Of a stretch of 42,834 nt of DNA, positions 30,352 through 42,834 are shown piece after piece; within the stretch, counting starts at the first letter, position 1, and every line of letters begins with the position of its first letter. The stretch lies in contig JACOZJ010000004.1 of the NCBI GenBank assembly GCA_016181405.1, positions 71,479 to 114,312 of the forward strand, written 5' to 3'. The position numbers and the translations under genes were made by a program. Origin of the DNA: Candidatus Wildermuthbacteria bacterium (GTDB lineage Bacteria > Patescibacteriota > Minisyncoccia > Minisyncoccales > UBA10102). The notes under the pieces were generated by a model. That model did not search any database. It was given only the letters and a program-made list of their open reading frames with translations, and was not told where the DNA came from.

Positions 30352-30942
30352 CTATTTCTGTTCCTTTTCCTCGATGACTTTGTCGATTAAGCCGTAATCT
30401 CTGGCTTCCTCTGCGGAAAGATAAAAGTCCCGATCCGTGTCTTTCTCCACTTTGCTAAACGGTTGGCCCGTGTGCTTCGCAAGAATCTGATTAAGCCTTT
30501 CTTTGATCTTCACGATCTGTTTGGCCGTAATTTCAATCTCAACGGCCTGACCAGTAGCACCCCCAATGGGTTGATGAAGCATAATCTGGGAGTTAGGAAG
30601 AGCGAAGCGCTTTCCCTTCTGTCCGGCTGCCAAAAGCACCGCGCCCATGGAAGCTGCCATGCCCACGCAAACTGTAGAGATAGGACATTTCACGTATTGC
30701 ATCGTATCGTAAATGGCAAGCCCGCCCGTAACCACGCCGCCGGGCGTATTGATGTACAGCTGTATGTCTTTTTTGGGATCCTTAGACTCCAAGAACAGCA
30801 TCTGGGCAATTACCGAGTTTGCCACAATGTCGTTGATGGGCGCGCCTAAAAAAATAATGCGTTCCTTGAGCAATCTCGAATAGATATCATACGCCCGCTC
30901 TCCGTATTGCGATTTTTCGATAACAGTTGGAATAAGATTCAT
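30352..30942 (-). CDS. clpP: ATP-dependent Clp protease proteolytic subunit
   Basis: [43 protein letters not shown]. Confidence 0.98.
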
Positions 30943-32018
30943 GGTTTTACAAATTGTTCTAAAAATTGCAGTGTCTTTTCATGCCGCAACACGCCTTCAG
31001 TATACTCTCTGAGCCGGTCAGGATCAAGTGCTTGCTTTGCCTTTTGGAGGCTGGTGTAATGTTTCAAAATAGCTTGTGCTTCCTGCGTAACCTCTTCTGG
31101 CGTTGGGGTAATGTTTTCTCTCTTAGCAACCTCGCGCAGCACCAAAAATCGTTTTACTCTTTGTTCTGCTTCTTGCCCGAACGATTCGAATAACTCCTGT
31201 TCGGTTTTGCCGGCTTTTTGCGCGTATTCTGCAAATGGCATCTGTGCCATTTGCTCTACTCCTCGTTTAACCTCTGAAAGCAATACCTGCTTCTCCCGTT
31301 CAACAAGCACATCTGGAATTTCGAGCTTCGAGCGGGCGGCTATCTTTTCTATAATTTCCTGCCTGAGTCGATCCCTTTCCTGCATCTCCTTCTCATGCTG
31401 CAAACCCTCCTGAATGCTTGCGCGCAAGCTTGCTAAATCTGCAAAATTTCCTACTGACTTTGCGAAATTATCGTCCAGAGGAACTTCACCCTTGTCTTTC
31501 CCGCCCAAACCTTCGGATTGCGGCGGGTCCGCCTCAATGCCCTCTGGGCTTTGGGCGGGTACTTTTCTGCTTTCCCTAAGCCATTGCAGAGTTTCGTCCA
31601 CGTTTTTCTCCTCCACCCGAACCTCCTTCCGTGCCACGGTTTCAGCAATTTTTTTATAGTCAGGCAACTCAATGTCAGGCAACACTGCCACCTGCACGCG
31701 AAACTCCAGTGGGTTTCCTGGGGCCAATTTCAATACCCGCACTTCAGGTTCTCCGATCACATCCAAACATTCTTGTTCCACGATATTGTGATAGACCTCC
31801 GCGATGGCAAACCTTGCGGCTTCGCTAAGGATTGCCACTTCTCCTACATGTTTCTCGGCAACCTGCGCGGGAACATGGCCGGGCCGAAATCCTTCGAGGC
31901 GCAAATCTTTTGCGAGAGTCATTACGGCCTCCTCTCTGTGATTACCGAGTTCTTCTGGGGTCAGTTGCACCTCAAGGGCAATCTGAGACTTGGGCAATTT
32001 CTTCTTTGAAAATTTCAT
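30939..32018 (-). CDS. tig: Trigger factor lacking the FKBP domain
   Basis: EGFRPGHVP ribosome-binding motif, N-domain then C-domain ([10 protein letters not shown]...IPDVLVERE); tig-clpP synteny. Confidence 0.9.
31500..31559. repeat. 60-bp palindromic element in frame within tig
   Basis: Terminal IR CCCGCCCAAA/TTTGGGCGGG; shares a 23-bp exact block with the copy in nusA. Confidence 0.85.
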
Positions 32019-33217
32019 GCTTCTGGCGTTTCTGTCTCAGGTTCTCCCGTTTCTACATCTTTCCCTTCGGGAGTGCGCACATCAATCTTCCAACCCGTAA
32101 GCTTTGCCGCCAACCTCACGTTTTGCCCGTCTCTTCCAATCGCGAGAGAAAGCTGGTCTTCTGCCACAATAGCTACTGCCTTGTTTTTCCCTTCTACTTC
32201 TACCTGAAGCACCTTTGCGGGTGAAAGTGCATTAGCAATATATGCTTCCGGATCTTCTGCCCACTCTACAATATCGATTTTTTCCCCTCCCAACTCGTTA
32301 ATCACTGCAGAAACTCTCGTACCCCGCTGGCCCACCATGGAACCTACGGGATCCACTCCATCTGCATTCGATGCCACTGCTACTTTTGTGCGGGAACCGG
32401 CTTCCCGCGTGATTCCTTTTATCTCAACGCTCCCAGATCCGATTTCCGGAACTTCGAGCTCAAAAAGCTTTGATATAAATTTCGGGTATGCTCTCGAAAG
32501 AAAAATCAAAGGTCCTCTCGGAGAGTCTTCCACGCGCATAAGATAAAACTTCAGGCGCTGGCCAACCCTATAAAACTCGCCGGGAACCTGTTCTTCTGCG
32601 GGGAGCACGCCTAAGGTTTTACCCAAATCCACAAATACCATTCTTCCTTCCACGCGCTGCACCAAACCCGAAACCAACTCTCCTTCTTTGGACTGAAATT
32701 CATCAAGCACAGAAGCCCGCTCTGCCTCCCTGATTTTCTGCAGAATAACCTGCTTTGCGGTTTGCGCCGCTATCCTGCCATAGTCGGTCTTGGACTCCAG
32801 CTTGAGCTCAACTTCGTCTCCTGGCCTTGCTTCTTTTTTTATCTTTTGCGCTTCCTCGAGCATAATGTGCCGCTCGGGGTTGAATCGCACTTTCTTCTCA
32901 CCTTCAGACGTCTCTCCACCCAAACCTTCGGATTGCGGCGGACTCGCCTCAATATCAGCCTCGGGCTGATTTTGGGCGAGCAACTCCTCTTCTGAATAAA
33001 TCATGCTGTCATCCACCGCGAGCTTCACCTGCCAAAACTCAACTTTCCCTGTTTTGATATCGAGGGATGCTTTGATATTCTGCCCGCGTTTTCCGAACTC
33101 TTTTTTGTAGGCCGCGGCAAGCGCCTGTTCCACAGTTTCCAACACCCTTTCTCGAGACAGGCCTTTTTCTTCCGCGATGCTGTCAAGCAGCAATCCAAAA
33201 TTTTTAAAATCGATCAT
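32015..33217 (-). CDS. nusA: Transcription termination/antitermination factor NusA
   Basis: GRIAAQTAKQV, S1 domain, REAGSRTKVAV, GQRGTRV, EKIDIV, SLAIGRDGQNVRLA. Confidence 0.98.
   Translation of the reverse strand: MIDFKNFGLLLDSIAEEKGLSRERVLETVEQALAAAYKKEFGKRGQNIKASLDIKTGKVEFWQVKLAVDDSMIYSEEELLAQNQPEADIEASPPQSEGLGGETSEGEKKVRFNPERHIMLEEAQKIKKEARPGDEVELKLESKTDYGRIAAQTAKQVILQKIREAERASVLDEFQSKEGELVSGLVQRVEGRMVFVDLGKTLGVLPAEEQVPGEFYRVGQRLKFYLMRVEDSPRGPLIFLSRAYPKFISKLFELEVPEIGSGSVEIKGITREAGSRTKVAVASNADGVDPVGSMVGQRGTRVSAVINELGGEKIDIVEWAEDPEAYIANALSPAKVLQVEVEGKNKAVAIVAEDQLSLAIGRDGQNVRLAAKLTGWKIDVRTPEGKDVETGEPETETPEA
32915..32980. repeat. 66-bp palindromic element in frame within nusA
   Basis: Imperfect terminal IR TCCACCCAAA/TTTGGGCGAG; CCCAAACCTTCGGATTGCGGCGG is identical to the tig copy. 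Confidence 0.85.
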
Positions 33218-33295: not shown

Positions 33296-35071
33296 CTAGG
33301 GACAGCTCCCTATAGTACACATCTTCATTTTATCAAACCAGCGCTGCGCATCTCCGCTATCAACTGATTCTCCTTCCCACTGAAGGGTAGCTCCTTGAAT
33401 CCCATTGTTGATTGCATATCTTGCACAAGGGTTATAACTAAAATCCCACGGTGTAGCGTTTCGTTGGTCGCCCCCATTAACAGCACCAGAACCACACCCG
33501 CTTTTACCGCATATAAGGTCGCCGTCTACAACCTTAGCGTCACCCGCAAAGATTGTGGCAACTTGAGGATACAAGGGAGTGCTTAAACCATCATCCCGAA
33601 CCGTCTGAACAACTAGGTCTACTGCTTGCTGTATCGTTCGGGGGTCATCTCCAGTCCAGGAATTCTCGCAATAACTCTGTAATTGAATAACCAGCCCGTC
33701 CAAGTACTGTGCCATTTTCCCATAATCCCACGTTATTCTGGATCCGCACCGGTTAGCGTAAAAGAGAGCGCCTCCTGTTGGCATTCCATACAAACGGAAG
33801 CTTGTGCCATGCGCTCCATTTGCATCATCTACAATTTTCCGGGCAATTCTAAAATTCTCGTATGTTGTACCAGGGTCCCATCGAAACTCCTGTATACCTG
33901 GACCGTCAAAACCACAACCCACAGGGCCGTCCGGACCCTCCTCATAATTCTCATACCCATATAAAAGCGCATCAAAACAAGCATTATCCAATGGCGGAGA
34001 AGCCGTGTTTAAAGCAAACTTTAGAGACTCATGGCCATCTGATCTTGCAACCATGAAAAGAGAACGCCCAGAGAATCTATTCCTGAAATCCCGGCAACGC
34101 CTATTGAGATAGTCAACGTCTGCCTGACTGCTGATTTGCGAATTGCTTTCACCTGCTACGCTTCTTTCCCTCCGCAGCAACATGATATCCCCAGTTTGCA
34201 CATAATTATAAAACTGGTTCAGCACGTGGTTTTCTACGCTAGGAAATATAAAAAATCCAATGGGGGGTCGGCTACCGGGAACTGGAGTGGGCCCCGGCGT
34301 TGGCGTAGCACCTGAAGTAGGTGTTGGCGTAGCACCAGGGGTCGGCGTAGCTCCAGCAGAGGGGGCAGGTGGCAACGGAGACGTTGCCACCTCCGTAGCG
34401 ACGTTAACAATAGCGGTAGAGCTTGCGGTTCCCGTACTACCCGTGCAGTCTATCTGGAAGGTATGTGTACCCACAGAAAGTCCTGAAATAGTTTGTTCTC
34501 CACCTCCAGCGGCGGGCGAGCCGCTCCAATCCCCAGAAGCAGTGCAGCTTGTTGTGTCAAACGTACTCCAGCTAAGGACCACGGGCTGCCCAACCTTGAT
34601 GCTCAAGGGAATAGCAGAAAGTCTCACTGATGTGGGGATTTTGCAGTCGATTTGCCACCATGTGCCAGTGCCGCCAAAGGAAGCAGATCCCAAAGAGGTA
34701 AGAAGAAGATTAATGAACAGCCAAGCGCCATACACAATGAGCACGCCTATAACTATGGCAAGAAAGATCTGTTGCCCTTGCTTAACGCGCGCGGGGTTTC
34801 CCATGGAAGAAAGCCAGATAAAACCTCCCCAGGCGAGCAGAAGAGAAGCAACGATGGGGACAACGGCAAAGCCGCCGTTGAACACGGAGGGGACAAGGAG
34901 AAAGGTGATGATGTTGTTGAGAAGTGAAAAGCCGTGGCAAAGAGTACAGGGAGACTCGCTCGCTCCTCCGCAGGGCACAAGGCCTGCGGCAGAGGTGGGG
35001 GCGGGGGCAAGAGCAAAGAGAACACCGCCTGCGAACAAAAGAAAGAGAAGAAAAACAAAAACTTTTTTCAT
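33296..35071 (-). CDS. TrbC/VirB2-like (CPR-type) pilin fused to an Ig-like module, a Pro/Thr linker and a ~320-aa C-terminal domain
   Basis: Signal peptide; GLVPCGG..PCTLCH..L.NNII.FL; GGF.WL.S.GNP..V.QG...F...VIG..IVYGAWLFIN.L; LSWST..TTSCTASGDW..; GATPTP repeats. Confidence 0.8.
   Translation of the reverse strand: MKKVFVFLLFLLFAGGVLFALAPAPTSAAGLVPCGGASESPCTLCHGFSLLNNIITFLLVPSVFNGGFAVVPIVASLLLAWGGFIWLSSMGNPARVKQGQQIFLAIVIGVLIVYGAWLFINLLLTSLGSASFGGTGTWWQIDCKIPTSVRLSAIPLSIKVGQPVVLSWSTFDTTSCTASGDWSGSPAAGGGEQTISGLSVGTHTFQIDCTGSTGTASSTAIVNVATEVATSPLPPAPSAGATPTPGATPTPTSGATPTPGPTPVPGSRPPIGFFIFPSVENHVLNQFYNYVQTGDIMLLRRERSVAGESNSQISSQADVDYLNRRCRDFRNRFSGRSLFMVARSDGHESLKFALNTASPPLDNACFDALLYGYENYEEGPDGPVGCGFDGPGIQEFRWDPGTTYENFRIARKIVDDANGAHGTSFRLYGMPTGGALFYANRCGSRITWDYGKMAQYLDGLVIQLQSYCENSWTGDDPRTIQQAVDLVVQTVRDDGLSTPLYPQVATIFAGDAKVVDGDLICGKSGCGSGAVNGGDQRNATPWDFSYNPCARYAINNGIQGATLQWEGESVDSGDAQRWFDKMKMCTIGSCP
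34278..34357 (-). repeat. Tandem coding repeats (GATPTP) forming a linker
   Basis: GT(T/C)GGCGTAGC(A/T)CC recurs three times on the plus strand (34299, 34323, 34341). Confidence 0.7.
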
Positions 35072-38696: not shown

Positions 38697-38824
38697 GGCT
38701 CTGAACAAAATCGTACGCTGCGGACTCGGTCAGTATGGCGGAGCGAAATACGGATTCGCGGGCAAAAATTTCCTCCCCTTGAACCCCTCCATTTTTGCCC
38801 GCTCGAAATTGCAGCAATCAGAAA
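38697..38824. repeat. Left site X-core-Y (attL-like)
   Basis: Arms X (38697-38757) and Y (38803-38824) are exact reverse complements of the right-site arms; the 45-bp core 38758-38802 is an exact direct repeat of 41141-41185. Confidence 0.92.
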
Positions 38825-38829
38825 CTAAA

Positions 38830-41097
38830 TCAGAAACTAAAATTAATGTCCAAATATTTTGGAACTTTAATTTCTTTAGTCTGTGTATTAACGGATCCGT
38901 AGGGTAGATATATCAATAAATTTGGACAATATTGTTTTGTTCCAAAATTAAAACAGTAATTTCCTGTGTACTTGTAAGTAGCGTCTGGAGTTAAGTTTAA
39001 ATCAGTCTTTGTTGTGATGCTTTTAACCGGATTTTCTGTAAAAAATCTTAATTGGGTTCTACCGTAAAATGAATTACTAGTCTCAAATGCTAAATCTGCT
39101 GAATACACATAATTGTCGAGCAAGATAGGAAAATTAAATTCAGTTGCATTTTTAGAATGATCTTTAAGTAAATCACTACATTCTTTTTCATCAAACGAAC
39201 AAAGTACATACCCACCACCCTTTACCGCTACAAATCTTTCCAACTTTGATTTAGATTCAAAATCCATTCGAATATGATTATCTGTGATAATATTCGGAGT
39301 AAAATTTGAAGTTACTTTGAGTTTTAATTTAGGATCGCCCAACAAGTAGTTATAACTTTTATAATAGAAATTATCACCTTCAGGATTTTGCTTGCCAGTA
39401 GTATATAGGTTGTAAGCGTCCTCTATCCTTGAATTTAGAAACTGACCCTGTCCTACAGGCATAGTGAGTGTATTTTGAACTAACATTCTTTGTTCGCTAC
39501 CAAAGTATAATTCACTTGCCACAAAAGATATTTCTGCGCTACCCAAGAAACCAACGGCACCATTTTTAATTGCCTCGTAGCCAACAATTGGATTGCCGCG
39601 AGTGGCTTCCGGCGTGCCTGGGTTCCACGGCTCTAGAGCAGCACATCCAAAGGCAAAAATAAAAGTAGGATTATTAAACACGGGCATTTCGGCAACACCT
39701 ATATTCCCCAAAATATTTCTCCATGAGTGTCCACTATAAACGAATACAGAGGAGTCTTTTACATCGGTAATAACCGCAGTTTTATCAGTGAGGGAATTAT
39801 AATCTTTGAGATTTGGCAAATATTTTTTGGTAAAATCATTATTGAGAACTGGATCAATTTTAGCTGCGTTTTGTCGCAATACGGGATCACCACTGCTGTA
39901 CGGCGACCAAGTTACTACCTTATCTGATTTCGCAATTTTTTCATAAAAGAGAGAGCGAGCGATCAATGAGGAGGCGTCGCTTACTGAATAGCCAGTTATT
40001 GCGCCAACAGAAGCATCTGGTACATACTCATTAGAATTGTTGTAGTCAGCCCAATAGTACAAATTAACAAAGTATTGATGGTCATCATCCTGATTATAAA
40101 GAGTTCCTTGCGGGACTATATTGAACTGTAAAAATGGTAAATTGTTTTCGTTGCCAACAGAAACTAAATAGGCGGGGTGAAATCCGTTTTGGGTTGCTTG
40201 ACTGACAGATTGTTTGACAGATTCACGAGTCGGATTTTTAACATTCAAAATTACACCGTCTCTTCCTCCAGCAAGAATTGGAGCGACGAGAGAAAATCTT
40301 GGATTAGATGTTTTTGTAAGATCATCGCTTGTAGTCAAGATAAGATAGTCGGAATCTTTTTTGAGTAAATCATTCGCTTCATTTACCGTTAATGCGTGAT
40401 CAACATTTTCAGCAACTTCTATACCTATGCTTTTTGCACTCCAACTTTTTATTAAATTTCTTTCTTCGTTTTTTAACGGAGTGAAGAAAATTGGTATATT
40501 AAATCTAGCCGCGAATGATGTCGCGACAATACTAGAGGCATAATCTTCTCCATTAGAAATTACTACGAAATTTGAGGAGCTATATAGTTTAGCGTTAATA
40601 TTATCCGCTTGGAGTTTTTCACTTTTCTGATCGACGTATTGATAATTGTAGGTGTAAATTTTTTTAGGAGAATATTGCTGTATAAAAAGTTTTGGAGAAA
40701 AATCATCGAGCTTACCTTTGTTTTCCACAACTAATATCGGTGCTATTTTGGAAATGGAGCTCACCTTAAAAATTGTTTTCCAATCTACCTCGCTATTTTC
40801 AGAAGCAACACCGAGCATAAAGACAGAACCTGTATCAATGGCGGGCTTCGATTTTACCTCTTGGTTAAAAAGCGTTTTTGATCCGAAGCCCTGATTATGA
40901 TTATCCGAAGTGCTAGAAATAATGTTCTGATCAGTTTTTGTATCGTCGGTTCTAGTAAAATACAAATAAGCGTACCCGCTCCCGCCTAAAATCAAACAAA
41001 AGAACAATATCAAAACGATAAGTTTTTTGTGAGATGACCGTGGCGGTTGGGAAACAGAATACGTACTTTGTGGATTGTTTAATTCTTCTGGGATCAT
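38830..41097 (-). CDS. Membrane-anchored peptidase C25 (gingipain-like) with cell-wall-binding-2-like repeats
   Basis: N-terminal TM; VVISNGEDYASSIVATSFAARFNIPIFFT (CWB2-like); YLVSVGNENNLPF, VPDASVG, FVYSGHS (His), FAFGC (Cys), NGAVGFLG, YNYLLGDP; visibly AT-richer than its flanks. Confidence 0.75.
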   Translation of the reverse strand: MIPEELNNPQSTYSVSQPPRSSHKKLIVLILFFCLILGGSGYAYLYFTRTDDTKTDQNIISSTSDNHNQGFGSKTLFNQEVKSKPAIDTGSVFMLGVASENSEVDWKTIFKVSSISKIAPILVVENKGKLDDFSPKLFIQQYSPKKIYTYNYQYVDQKSEKLQADNINAKLYSSSNFVVISNGEDYASSIVATSFAARFNIPIFFTPLKNEERNLIKSWSAKSIGIEVAENVDHALTVNEANDLLKKDSDYLILTTSDDLTKTSNPRFSLVAPILAGGRDGVILNVKNPTRESVKQSVSQATQNGFHPAYLVSVGNENNLPFLQFNIVPQGTLYNQDDDHQYFVNLYYWADYNNSNEYVPDASVGAITGYSVSDASSLIARSLFYEKIAKSDKVVTWSPYSSGDPVLRQNAAKIDPVLNNDFTKKYLPNLKDYNSLTDKTAVITDVKDSSVFVYSGHSWRNILGNIGVAEMPVFNNPTFIFAFGCAALEPWNPGTPEATRGNPIVGYEAIKNGAVGFLGSAEISFVASELYFGSEQRMLVQNTLTMPVGQGQFLNSRIEDAYNLYTTGKQNPEGDNFYYKSYNYLLGDPKLKLKVTSNFTPNIITDNHIRMDFESKSKLERFVAVKGGGYVLCSFDEKECSDLLKDHSKNATEFNFPILLDNYVYSADLAFETSNSFYGRTQLRFFTENPVKSITTKTDLNLTPDATYKYTGNYCFNFGTKQYCPNLLIYLPYGSVNTQTKEIKVPKYLDINFSF

Positions 41098-41118: not shown

Positions 41119-41272
41119 TTTCTGATTGCTGCAATTTCGAGCGGGCAAAAATTTCCTCCCCTTGAACCCCTCCATTTTTGCCCGCGAATCCGTATTTCGC
41201 TCCGCCATACTGACCGAGTCCGCGAGGCGGTGGGGCGGGGCGTTCGTCGAGCGTACGATTTTGTTCAGAGCC
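41119..41272. repeat. Right site rc(Y)-core-rc(X) (attR-like), with a 27-bp insert in X
   Basis: Exact blocks of 22, 45, 38 and 22 bp shared with the left site. Confidence 0.92.
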
Positions 41273-41380
41273 CCGCCAAAAGCATTCCCGCCGCTACGCG
41301 GCGGTTCGAGCCGATGTATAATGAGATTACAAATTGTCGGTGTAATGCAAAAACCCTTTATCAATTTAATCCCCGAAGCT

Positions 41381-42834
41381 ATGATCAAATATTTTATATA
41401 TTGCAGAAAATCGAGCGAGAATGAGGAACGCCAAGTTTTGAGCATTGAAGCGCAACTGACGGAGCTTCGGGAATTCGCCAAGCAACAAAATCTGTTTGTG
41501 GTAAAAGAGTTTTATGAAAGTAAAACAGCGAAAGAGCCTGGTCGCGAAGTATTTAACGAAATGCTTGGCGAAATTGAAAAAGGTTCTGCCTCGGGAATCT
41601 TAGCGTGGAATCCAGACCGTTTAGCGAGAAACTCGATTGACGGTGGCAAGGTCATATATTTTGTGGATACGCTAAAAATTGTTGCGCTAAAATTCCCGAC
41701 ATTTTGGTTTGAAGCGACACCCCAAGGAAAATTTATGTTAAGTGTCGCTTTCGGACAAGCAAAATATTACACCGACAATTTAAGAGAAAACATTTTGCGC
41801 GGTATTCGACAAAAAATACGCCGTGGTGAATTATCGGCAAAAGCCCCTCTCGGATATTTCAACGAGCCGAGATTGCGAACGATTGAGCCAGATAAAAAGA
41901 CCTTTGACAAAGTAAAAGAAGCGTTAGGGGCTTTTGCTACGGGGCAATACACGCTCACGGCAATTCAGCGCAAAATGTTTTCTCTTGGCTTGGTTGGCGC
42001 ACGGAGCGGTAAACCCCTTGTCCTCGCCTCGGTAGAGCATATTTTGAAAAATCCTTTTTATTATGGACATTTTCAGTACCGAGGCAAGGTGCATCAGGGT
42101 TCGCATAAGCCAATGATTTCAAAGAAACTTTTTGACAAAATACAGGAAGCACTTGTTGCCAATGGAAAGCCCCGCAAAAAGCGAGGAGAGAAAGGTTTGC
42201 TATACAAAGGATTCGCTGTATGCGGTGAGTGCGGCTATGCGATAACTGCTGAACGGAAGATAAAGAAAAGTGGATTGGTGTATCACTACTATCACTGCAC
42301 TTTCAAAAGCCGCACTCAAAAATGTTCACAAACTCGCTTTTTGCGGGAAGAAGAATTGTCGCGACAAGTGCAAGACATGGTTCAAAAAGTTTCTTTGCCT
42401 GATGAGTGGCGAAAAACTTGAAACTGAAAACGCCGATGTCCACCACTCATCAAACCTTTTCGTTCAAAATCTCAAAAACGATATTTCCGCCGTTTCAGCG
42501 CCTATCTCTCGCCTCACAGACGCTTACCTAAACGAAGCGCTGGAACTTGGCGAGTACTTGGAGCGCAAGAACGTGCTGACGGCGGAAAAACGGACGCTGG
42601 AAGAAAAATTGAGCGATTTTGAACGCAAAGGTAATCATTGGCTCGAACTCATGCGAAACTGGATTATTGAAGCCAACCAAGCTGGAAATCTCATTAAACA
42701 AGAAAATCTTTCGGGGATGAAAGATTTTCTTGCAGACATCGGCTCGAACCGCCGCGTAGCGGCGGGAATGCTTTTGGCGGAATTCAAAATGCCTTGGCGG
42801 GACTTGGCGAAAATACCAGTCCGAACCCGCGCCT
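41381..42834 (+). pseudogene. Large serine recombinase (resolvase + recombinase + Zn-ribbon + coiled coil) with a +1 frameshift at ~42416; runs off the window end
   Basis: YCRKSSE..RQVLSIEAQ, DRLARN, LKNPFYYG, CGECG..YYHC; TGA at 42419; coding (LETENAD..LTDAYL..GNHWLE..IGSNR) continues from 42417 to the window end. Start 41381 or 41345. Confidence 0.9.

Follow-up and report, generated by a model that had tools for sequence, protein, structure and literature searches.

Double-hairpin repeats inserted in frame in tig, nusA and other genes of a Candidatus Wildermuthbacteria bacterium, and their position beside small GIY-YIG nuclease genes in related genomes

The stretch of DNA analysed here (hereafter the window; 42,834 nt, C1:71479-114312) comes from the genome of a Candidatus Wildermuthbacteria bacterium (G000; 729 kb in 10 contigs, 47% G+C, estimated to be 99.6% complete) and contains tig and nusA, two genes that each carry in frame a copy of the same short hairpin element. 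In the initial annotation of this DNA it was suggested that these copies belong to a family of selfish hairpins colonising housekeeping proteins, similar to the Rickettsia palindromic elements (RPEs). We observed that six copies are present in the genome, five of them intact and one decayed, that 66 distinct copies can be collected overall and that orthologues of the host genes exist without the insert, all of which supports this suggestion. The element very probably represents a selfish, mobile, RPE-like hairpin family of bacteria of the candidate phyla radiation (CPR). The two copies of the window and their host genes are listed below; the minus strand is the coding strand.

30939..32018, minus strand: tig, host gene, trigger factor of 359 amino acids (aa) with Trigger_N and Trigger_C only, without the peptidyl-prolyl isomerase (PPIase) domain
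31500..31559, minus strand: tig copy, 60-nt core, sense strand CCCGCCCAAAGCCCAGAGGGCATTGAGGCGGACCCGCCGCAATCCGAAGGTTTGGGCGGG, encoding a 20-residue peptide; 85.6 bits with covariance model R1
31528..31559, minus strand: hairpin 1 of the tig copy, basal stem CCGCC/GGCGG, middle CAA/TTG, apical GCCC-AGA-GGGC
31500..31527, minus strand: hairpin 2 of the tig copy, CCCGCC-G-CAAT-CCGAAGG-TTTG-GGCGGG
32015..33217, minus strand: nusA, host gene, 400 aa, with the insert in a variable acidic linker between 'MIYSEEEL' and 'KKVRFNPERH'
32915..32980, minus strand: nusA copy, 66-nt core, sense strand CTCGCCCAAAATCAGCCCGAGGCTGATATTGAGGCGAGTCCGCCGCAATCCGAAGGTTTGGGTGGA, encoding a 22-residue peptide; 71.9 bits with the covariance model
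32943..32980, minus strand: hairpin 1 of the nusA copy, with a longer apical stem of 7 bp, ATCAGCC-CGA-GGCTGAT
32915..32942, minus strand: hairpin 2 of the nusA copy, containing the 23-mer exactly common to tig

The positions and lengths of these two elements, their common reading frame and the peptides that they encode are as the initial annotation had given them. The exact 23-bp block that it noted is also real: the 23-mer CCCAAACCTTCGGATTGCGGCGG lies at 31504-31526 and 32919-32941, and no such match is expected from 100 shuffles of the window. As RNA, the tig copy folds at -36.2 kcal/mol (z -5.0) and the nusA copy at -37.3 kcal/mol (z -5.7). The latter is slightly decayed, with mismatches in both basal stems, and the differences between the two copies in the apical stem of hairpin 1 are compensating changes. 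An assembly chimera, which had been considered, is unlikely since the Logan assembly of run SRR12113430 independently holds an identical tig gene with its insert. In trigger factor the insert occupies the linker where the PPIase domain is found in other lineages. We also noticed that this domain is missing across the Tig orthologues of the same family, the element being exactly at that junction, and that one genome of another family of the same order retains a long insert at the PPIase position. Downstream of nusA and tig we found clpP and, farther on, the gene for RNase Y. Close relatives of this NusA, at 92% identity, bear the name Candidatus Wildermuthbacteria.

The copies fold as two hairpins side by side (-31 to -40 kcal/mol, z -2.7 to -5.7), each having CCCGCC/GGCGGG as its closing stem; the core measures 60-72 nt in this genome and 57-108 nt across the family. 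We built the covariance model R1 and aligned to it 52 copies from many sources. In this alignment, which is fitted to the model, the two-hairpin structure is paired at 94.9%, and 12 of its 22 pairs are changed on both sides (85 cells). Covariation scores 0.238; shuffles average 0.075, none of 500 reaches the observed value, and the signal disappears when the partners are shifted by 1-3 columns. Part of hairpin 2 was fixed in the pattern used to find the metagenome copies, so that the invariance of this hairpin is partly there by construction. Hairpin 1 was not constrained by the pattern and covaries clearly (GC:28, CG:9, AU:7 at one pair, for example).

Terminal inverted repeats (TIRs) had been described as the architecture of the element. 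They are present as such in the tig sequence; nevertheless, end-to-end pairing does no better than shuffles (83.3% paired, shuffled mean 84.2%) and its covariation is below the shuffled mean, so that we rejected the end-to-end palindrome. A four-way junction was rejected on the same covariation evidence because its pairing is that of the TIR model. The repeats at the ends are a by-product, since both hairpins use the same stem. These results support an architecture of two tandem hairpins and not of a TIR-bounded palindrome. In Rfam, neither the tig nor the nusA element has a match, at the gathering threshold or at E values up to 5.

A genome-wide search, which the initial annotation had advised, was carried out with blastn and nhmmer and gave more than the two copies of the window. 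Besides tig and nusA, the copies are the following, all six being in the sense orientation of their host gene and in the same phase:

C6:94218-94277: copy at the 3' end of nusB, in which a TGA internal to the element now terminates the protein (...ELEATQSTESPRGIQADPPQS, then stop)
C6:25236-25307: rplW copy, in an N-terminal extension of ribosomal protein L23
C8:21921-21986: copy in the gene of a DUF5671 membrane protein, in a loop
C6:27135-27180: rplV copy, the sixth, nearly erased, in a C-terminal extension of L22

The cores of the five intact copies (tig, nusA, nusB, rplW, DUF5671 gene) are 60, 66, 60, 72 and 66 nt long. A weak covariance-model match at C2:15687-15759 (E 0.006) was not counted as a copy; the region C2:15640-15780, GC-rich and full of short stems, has no convincing open reading frame (ORF) and is probably another structured RNA. 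The genome also contains at least seven copies of a second palindrome family, TCCGCCAGCTGGCGGA (16-18 nt), with the same CCGCC/GGCGG arms as the stems of the element (C1:59622, C1:69288, C2:39440, C2:99021, C6:74615, C6:93728, C6:115487 and C6:217443); one of them lies 60 nt upstream of the nusB start.

All 66 distinct copies come from CPR/Patescibacteria. With model R1, nine of the 41 related genomes were seen to carry the element, at different loci and in numbers ranging from a single copy to about 15. Scanning for a 19-mer, with each species represented by one genome, gave 83 matches, which is about the chance level; six of these records held the full element by the covariance model, all of them CPR and two of them the relatives G008 and G025. 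The CPR records with the element are labelled Paceibacterota, Spechtbacteria, Berkelbacteria, Saccharibacteria (one) and Patescibacteria group bacterium (one). About 74 chance matches of the 19-mer in other phyla, mostly with high GC, contained no element. A stricter pattern retrieved 46 metagenome contigs from groundwater and sediments. The same family of double hairpins is thus shown to be CPR-wide. In IMG/VR the element pattern had no match; a search of this database with a GIY-YIG profile gave only partial, generic matches, in whose loci the covariance model found nothing, and a phage vector was therefore rejected.

To follow the insertion itself we used as reference for empty sites a genome of the same genus, G001, with a NusA 93% identical to that of G000. 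The tig site in G001 is empty (...AGAAAAGTA|AAAGAC...) and G000 has exactly the 60-nt core between those flanks. The nusB site is likewise empty in G001 (...ACGCAA|CAACAA...), with exactly 60 nt between the flanks in G000. When filled and empty sites were compared, we found no target-site duplication at either tig or nusB. The rplW insertion has an exact 5' junction and a diverged 3' flank. None of the other orthologues that we aligned (16 Tig, 29 L23 and 29 NusB) carries an insert at the tig, rplW and nusB sites. The alignment of orthologues proposed initially to define the insertion points thus gave exact ones in tig and nusB; the same annotation had said that its idea would fail if only two copies existed and if orthologues had the same peptide without the palindrome, and we observed the opposite on both points.

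The bases at the junctions are biased: A occupies -1 in 78% of the copies, -2 in 70% and +2 in 86%, and G occupies +1 in 69%. Since the empty sites already contain these bases, they reflect a choice of target, (A/T)A|RA, which is common at Lys/Glu codon boundaries of charged linkers. Copies from different genera are up to 58/60 nt identical though their NusA proteins are 82% identical. The fate of an older insertion can be followed at rplV, where G008 has an intact copy, G001 one that is eroding and G000 one of which scarcely anything is left; this decay in place shows that inserted copies are not maintained by the host. Altogether, these comparisons show that the element entered genes recently, cleanly, without target duplication and at A-rich (A/T)A|RA sites.

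We then classified the 66 copies by the ORF of at least 120 aa in which they lie:

Same frame as in tig and nusA (the core starts at codon position 1): 46/66 copies
Second sense frame: 5/66 copies, including class II ribonucleotide reductase and YbeY, which are real genes
Third sense frame: 1/66 copies, the nusB copy, where the long frame comes from rnc, read through from upstream; in NusB the element is translated in the tig/nusA frame as far as the internal stop
Antisense: 5/66 copies, including the 3' tail of lgt
No long ORF: 9/66 copies

One frame is therefore used by 46 of the 57 copies that are genic under this ORF threshold. It reads CCC GCC ... GGC GGG and gives a peptide of the type PAxS..GPPQS..LGG. 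The core length is a multiple of 3 in 59 of 65 copies, and five of the six exceptions are copies without a long ORF. Stop codons alone are not sufficient to produce this frame bias because four other frames are also free of stops in 51-54 of the 66 copies. The favoured frame is the only one whose peptide is free of Arg, Trp, Cys or hydrophobic runs; rich in Pro, Gly, Ser, Gln and Glu, the inserted peptide is probably floppy, and the retained copies occupy variable linkers or tails of their host proteins. The bias probably comes from both the phase of the target and the tolerance for the peptide. In a subfamily from G025, the frame is shifted inside hairpin 1 and restored inside hairpin 2, so that the middle of the peptide is altered and both hairpins are kept; the conserved object is therefore the nucleic-acid structure and not the peptide.

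Searching for a GIY-YIG gene had also been advised, and here we obtained a consistent result. In the relative G009 the only copy of the element lies 13 nt upstream of an 84-aa ORF with GIY-YIG motifs; in G016 a copy lies 34 nt upstream of a homologue 49% identical to this protein. Both are single-domain proteins, PF01541 alone being found in one and, overlapping with it in the other, T5orf172 (PF10544), a related nuclease-domain model. No NCBIfam model matched the nuclease above its cut-off, and a sequence search of the PDB gave only UPF0213 proteins at E values of about 0.03. A protein search returned 584 homologues; those with a named source belong to CPR groups (Wildermuth-, Nealson-, Staskawicz- and Gottesmanbacteria), except one labelled only 'bacterium'. 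At least 12 of 20 over-long homologue ORFs read through a peptide derived from the element, such as ..AGPP.. or ..LGGE...

Starting from the nuclease homologues, down to 48% identity, we obtained seven further independent contexts, which makes nine with those of G009 and G016. In all nine the order is the same: the 5' part of a tRNA gene (positions 1 to X), a hairpin block, then 4-6 nt that continue the same tRNA, a stretch of 10-60 nt, the GIY-YIG ORF (84-89 aa) and a complete tRNA gene. The hairpins are situated 10-65 nt upstream of the start codon in each case. The break X is at position 7, 13, 20, 20, 22, 34, 34 or 34, in the D-loop or in the anticodon loop, and is degenerate in one context. 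The block consists of 1-3 hairpins over 37-93 nt, and it has entered the tRNA fragment no less cleanly than the element entered tig and nusB. The complete tRNAs are those for Ala, Gly, Val, Ile, Ile, His, Arg, Gly and Gly. The hairpin of the G009 cassette belongs to the subtype (CAAT...TTTGGGCGGG) of the solo copies of G000.

Several variants of these cassettes were noticed. In locus L265, a hairpin-GIY-YIG cassette is followed downstream by two identical extra double hairpins (2473-2540 and 2585-2652, 112 nt apart), with tRNA-Ile on one side of them and tRNA-Phe on the other, so that tRNA clusters can accumulate several elements. Loci L259 and L261, which encode the same GIY-YIG protein and come from different samples, differ by the presence or absence of 41 nt at the left end of the cassette; the sample with the shorter form lacks the tRNA 5' remnant and the left half of hairpin 1. 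Locus L043 (G009 C5:191433-194500) contains within 3 kb two different small GIY-YIG genes, the second of which is preceded by a different hairpin of its own, together with two tRNA genes and a RAYT-like gene, that is, one related to the transposases of REP repeats considered below; this gene is present twice, identical, 4.6 kb apart. In G000 we found two intact small GIY-YIG genes and a pseudogene:

C4:2682-2927: small GIY-YIG gene, 43% identical to the G009 protein
C1:69901-70098: small GIY-YIG gene between tRNA-Phe and tRNA-Gly, 1.4 kb upstream of the window
C6:240915-241106: GIY-YIG pseudogene adjoining tRNA genes

The first of these codes for 84 aa and lies between the arms of a different inverted repeat, CACCCCGTTAGATA / TATCTAACGGGGT(A) (C4:2655-2945, on a contig of 3.2 kb); its neighbours resemble a gene of the Fic/DOC type and one for a type I methylase. 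This arrangement suggests that another type of hairpin or inverted repeat is paired with another GIY-YIG subfamily.

On the basis of this gene order and by analogy with the Ssn enzymes described below, we tentatively propose that the GIY-YIG nuclease recognises the hairpins in single-stranded DNA and mobilises them. The solo hairpin pairs would be the miniature, non-autonomous form of a larger unit made of a hairpin block and an 84-89-aa GIY-YIG gene in tRNA genes. By the same analogy, cleavage would occur a few bases from hairpins folded on a single strand, and in this way the hairpins could reach new sites by copying. The copies of G000 are orphans, since no cassette with the hairpin type of the element is found in this genome, and may have moved in trans or by means of a nuclease since lost. 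As observed above, the copies that persist in genes nearly all have a length that is a multiple of 3, are free of stops and are read in one frame; once inserted, they are left unmaintained and decay.

The full model, which we advance with somewhat more reserve, takes the double hairpin as the working end of an undescribed mobile unit with a single-strand nuclease of about 85 aa of the GIY-YIG type. This unit would integrate at a D-loop or anticodon-loop position of tRNA genes, bringing a replacement for the 5' part of the tRNA. Gene-less hairpin pairs of 60-72 nt would be moved in trans via single-stranded DNA to (A/T)A|RA sites, without duplicating the target, and these pairs, stop-free and of a length that is a multiple of 3 by design, would settle in linkers of essential proteins.

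Several observations weigh against this reading. Hairpins on both sides of the nuclease gene were not found, the downstream side being taken by the tRNA gene, and the proposed link between nuclease and element is one of adjacency only. None of the two intact GIY-YIG genes and the pseudogene of G000 has the hairpin type of the element, so that no resident mobiliser was found for the insertions that followed the split from G001. The SRM motif associated with Ssn enzymes (HGTCWY N0-2 YYVSBRH N0-5 WNVSBRG N0-2 RNCYNB) matches none of the 66 copies; in the whole G000 genome it has 4 matches, with 0-5 in shuffles. The bias in frame and orientation could be attributed to target choice, to selection or to both. 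Five of the six host genes of G000 are on the leading strand, nusB being where the skew is near zero, and the directions of replication and transcription are confounded because most host genes have this position. Finally, the nusA site looks like an allele replacement rather than a simple insertion, and homologous recombination between strains therefore contributes to spread.

Two other ways of spreading the copies have to be compared with a GIY-YIG nuclease. In the first, the element would be a REP/REPIN-like repeat, moved by the RAYT-type (IS200-like Y1) transposase of G000, for which the initial annotation had also recommended a search. One RAYT-like gene does exist in this genome (C6:248534-249274; PF01797, E 5.5e-7). 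REP/RAYT systems involve hairpins, single-strand action and no target duplication, which fits the tig and nusB sites, and in G009 and G025 an element copy is 1.2-1.6 kb from a Y1 gene. However, the gene of G000 shows no link with the element, as the CCCGCC/GGCGGG motif is not found within 1 kb of it. Moreover, Y1 genes are present in 27 of the 41 relatives against 9 of 41 for the element, and without splitting the RAYT clades there is no clear correspondence between the two. G016 has copies and no Y1 match, though this genome is only 74% complete, and in G009 the element is directly adjoined by the GIY-YIG gene and not by a RAYT gene. We consider this explanation unlikely.

The second possibility is that copies spread mainly by homologous recombination or gene conversion of linker alleles between strains, true insertions being rare and old. 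It is at nusA that this would apply. In comparison with G001, the element-bearing linker of G000 replaces the native variable acidic linker, which is of similar length (84 vs 72 nt). The slightly decayed allele of G000 is also present in four NusA of 94-95% identity and in one of 82%, whereas a 92%-identical NusA is without the element. Another allele is seen in a strain with 98.6-99.6% nucleotide identity in nusA when the linker is set aside: it has a different, intact 66-nt copy, located 12 nt further on, after ...GCGATGAAA|. Such a mode of spread does not account for tig and nusB, where exactly 60 nt were gained and the flanks are unchanged, nor for copies in dozens of unrelated genes, nor for the near-identical copies in different genes of genera whose NusA proteins are only 82% identical. 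As the main route it has little to recommend it.

That the element is kept for the benefit of the host, whether by lending proteins a useful flexible segment or by giving operons of the nusA-tig-clpP type an mRNA structure or a processing signal, a function that the initial annotation had mentioned, could draw on the strong single-frame bias, on the benign Pro/Gly-rich peptide and on the stable predicted RNA folds; it is very improbable given that the rplV copy decays in place, that close orthologues do without copies, that the G025 subfamily alters the peptide yet retains the hairpins, that some copies are antisense, in another frame or intergenic, and that the element, found at non-homologous positions in ORFs, has no T-run and belongs to no Rfam family.

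Among known systems, the element is closest in behaviour to the RPEs. According to Ogata et al. (2000), as reported in PMC10969869, RPEs are about 150 nt long and nearly half of those of R. conorii are in frame in housekeeping genes. As in that case, a short hairpin repeat of a reduced genome is found in frame in unrelated housekeeping genes, to which it adds a tolerated peptide, and no linked transposase is evident in either. The hosts are nevertheless Patescibacteria and not Alphaproteobacteria, the length is 60-72 nt instead of about 150 nt, the CPR element is made of two tandem hairpins, and its non-coding copies abut a GIY-YIG gene in tRNA genes. RPE-1 to RPE-10 are elements of about 100-150 bp in Rickettsiales, and by size, host and architecture, RPEs being compared by their description, the CPR element is not a member of that family.

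Small free-standing GIY-YIG genes among tRNA genes have a precedent in phage T4, where segB, a homing endonuclease gene located in a tRNA gene cluster, spreads as selfish DNA. Seg proteins have a DNA-binding domain and cut double-stranded DNA, and we know of no hairpin repeat family attached to them. The resemblance with our cassettes lies in the small GIY-YIG gene lodged among or within tRNA genes; unlike the phage-borne Seg genes, the nuclease clade and the element have no relatives that we could find in IMG/VR.

Ssn enzymes, whose activity was shown in Neisseria, are single-domain GIY-YIG proteins acting on single-stranded DNA, which they cleave adjacent to the hairpin that is specific to them (Chenal et al. 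2025, PMC11893778). Their genes have a layout like that of insertion sequences, with neighbouring NTS/SRM repeats, and are enriched in symbionts such as Rickettsia (PMC11893778). In both systems a single-domain GIY-YIG protein of about 85-95 aa is associated with a dispersed hairpin repeat beside its gene. In CPR, however, the hairpins are on one side only and a tRNA gene is on the other, and the repeats are mostly inside genes.

With REP/REPIN sequences the element shares hairpin repeats that are often paired, the lack of target duplication and a presumed single-strand mechanism. REPs are described as extragenic and as bracketing their own RAYT gene (PMC2817692 and Ton-Hoang et al. 2012, both as cited in PMC11893778), whereas the copies reported here are mostly intragenic and the RAYT gene of G000 is unflanked. 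Classical MITEs, or miniature inverted-repeat transposable elements (Correia/NEMIS, ERIC, Nezha), have TIRs and target-site duplications and are occasionally in frame in genes (PMC10969869). The CPR element resembles them in being small, non-coding and dispersed; neither TIR pairing nor target-site duplication is supported for it. In the literature that we searched, the element apparently has no description for CPR.

Two other features of the window were noted. Inside a 591-aa ORF (33296-35071, minus strand) that has no Pfam match, positions 34296-34361 contain three tandem repeats of 24 nt (or 18 nt), GGCGTTGGCGTAGCACCTGAAGTA. Nested perfect inverted repeats surround two genes between 38697 and 42780, which looks like a recombinase-controlled invertible or excisable segment:

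38697-38824 and 41119-41272: arms bracketing the 755-aa gene
38830-41097, minus strand: Peptidase_C25-like gene, 755 aa
41273-41317 and 42736-42780: arms bracketing the recombinase gene
41126-42421, plus strand: large serine recombinase, 431 aa

For 25 years, selfish hairpins inserted in frame have to our knowledge been a peculiarity of Rickettsia, and no mobiliser is known for them. The family described here is a second example of an RPE-like process, in an unrelated lineage with reduced genomes. The evidence is unusually clean, with exact filled and empty sites, turnover between strains about 99% identical and an old copy in decay, and the small GIY-YIG nuclease is a concrete candidate enzyme. 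For annotation, it is a warning that 'motifs' shared by unrelated CPR proteins, as well as odd N-terminal extensions of GIY-YIG proteins, can be derived from the element. In these ultra-small bacteria, linkers and tails of NusA, NusB, trigger factor, L22 and L23 gain and lose sequence. If the proposed model is true, a hairpin-guided GIY-YIG nuclease, and not a transposase, would drive repeats of the RPE type, and this might explain the RPEs themselves.

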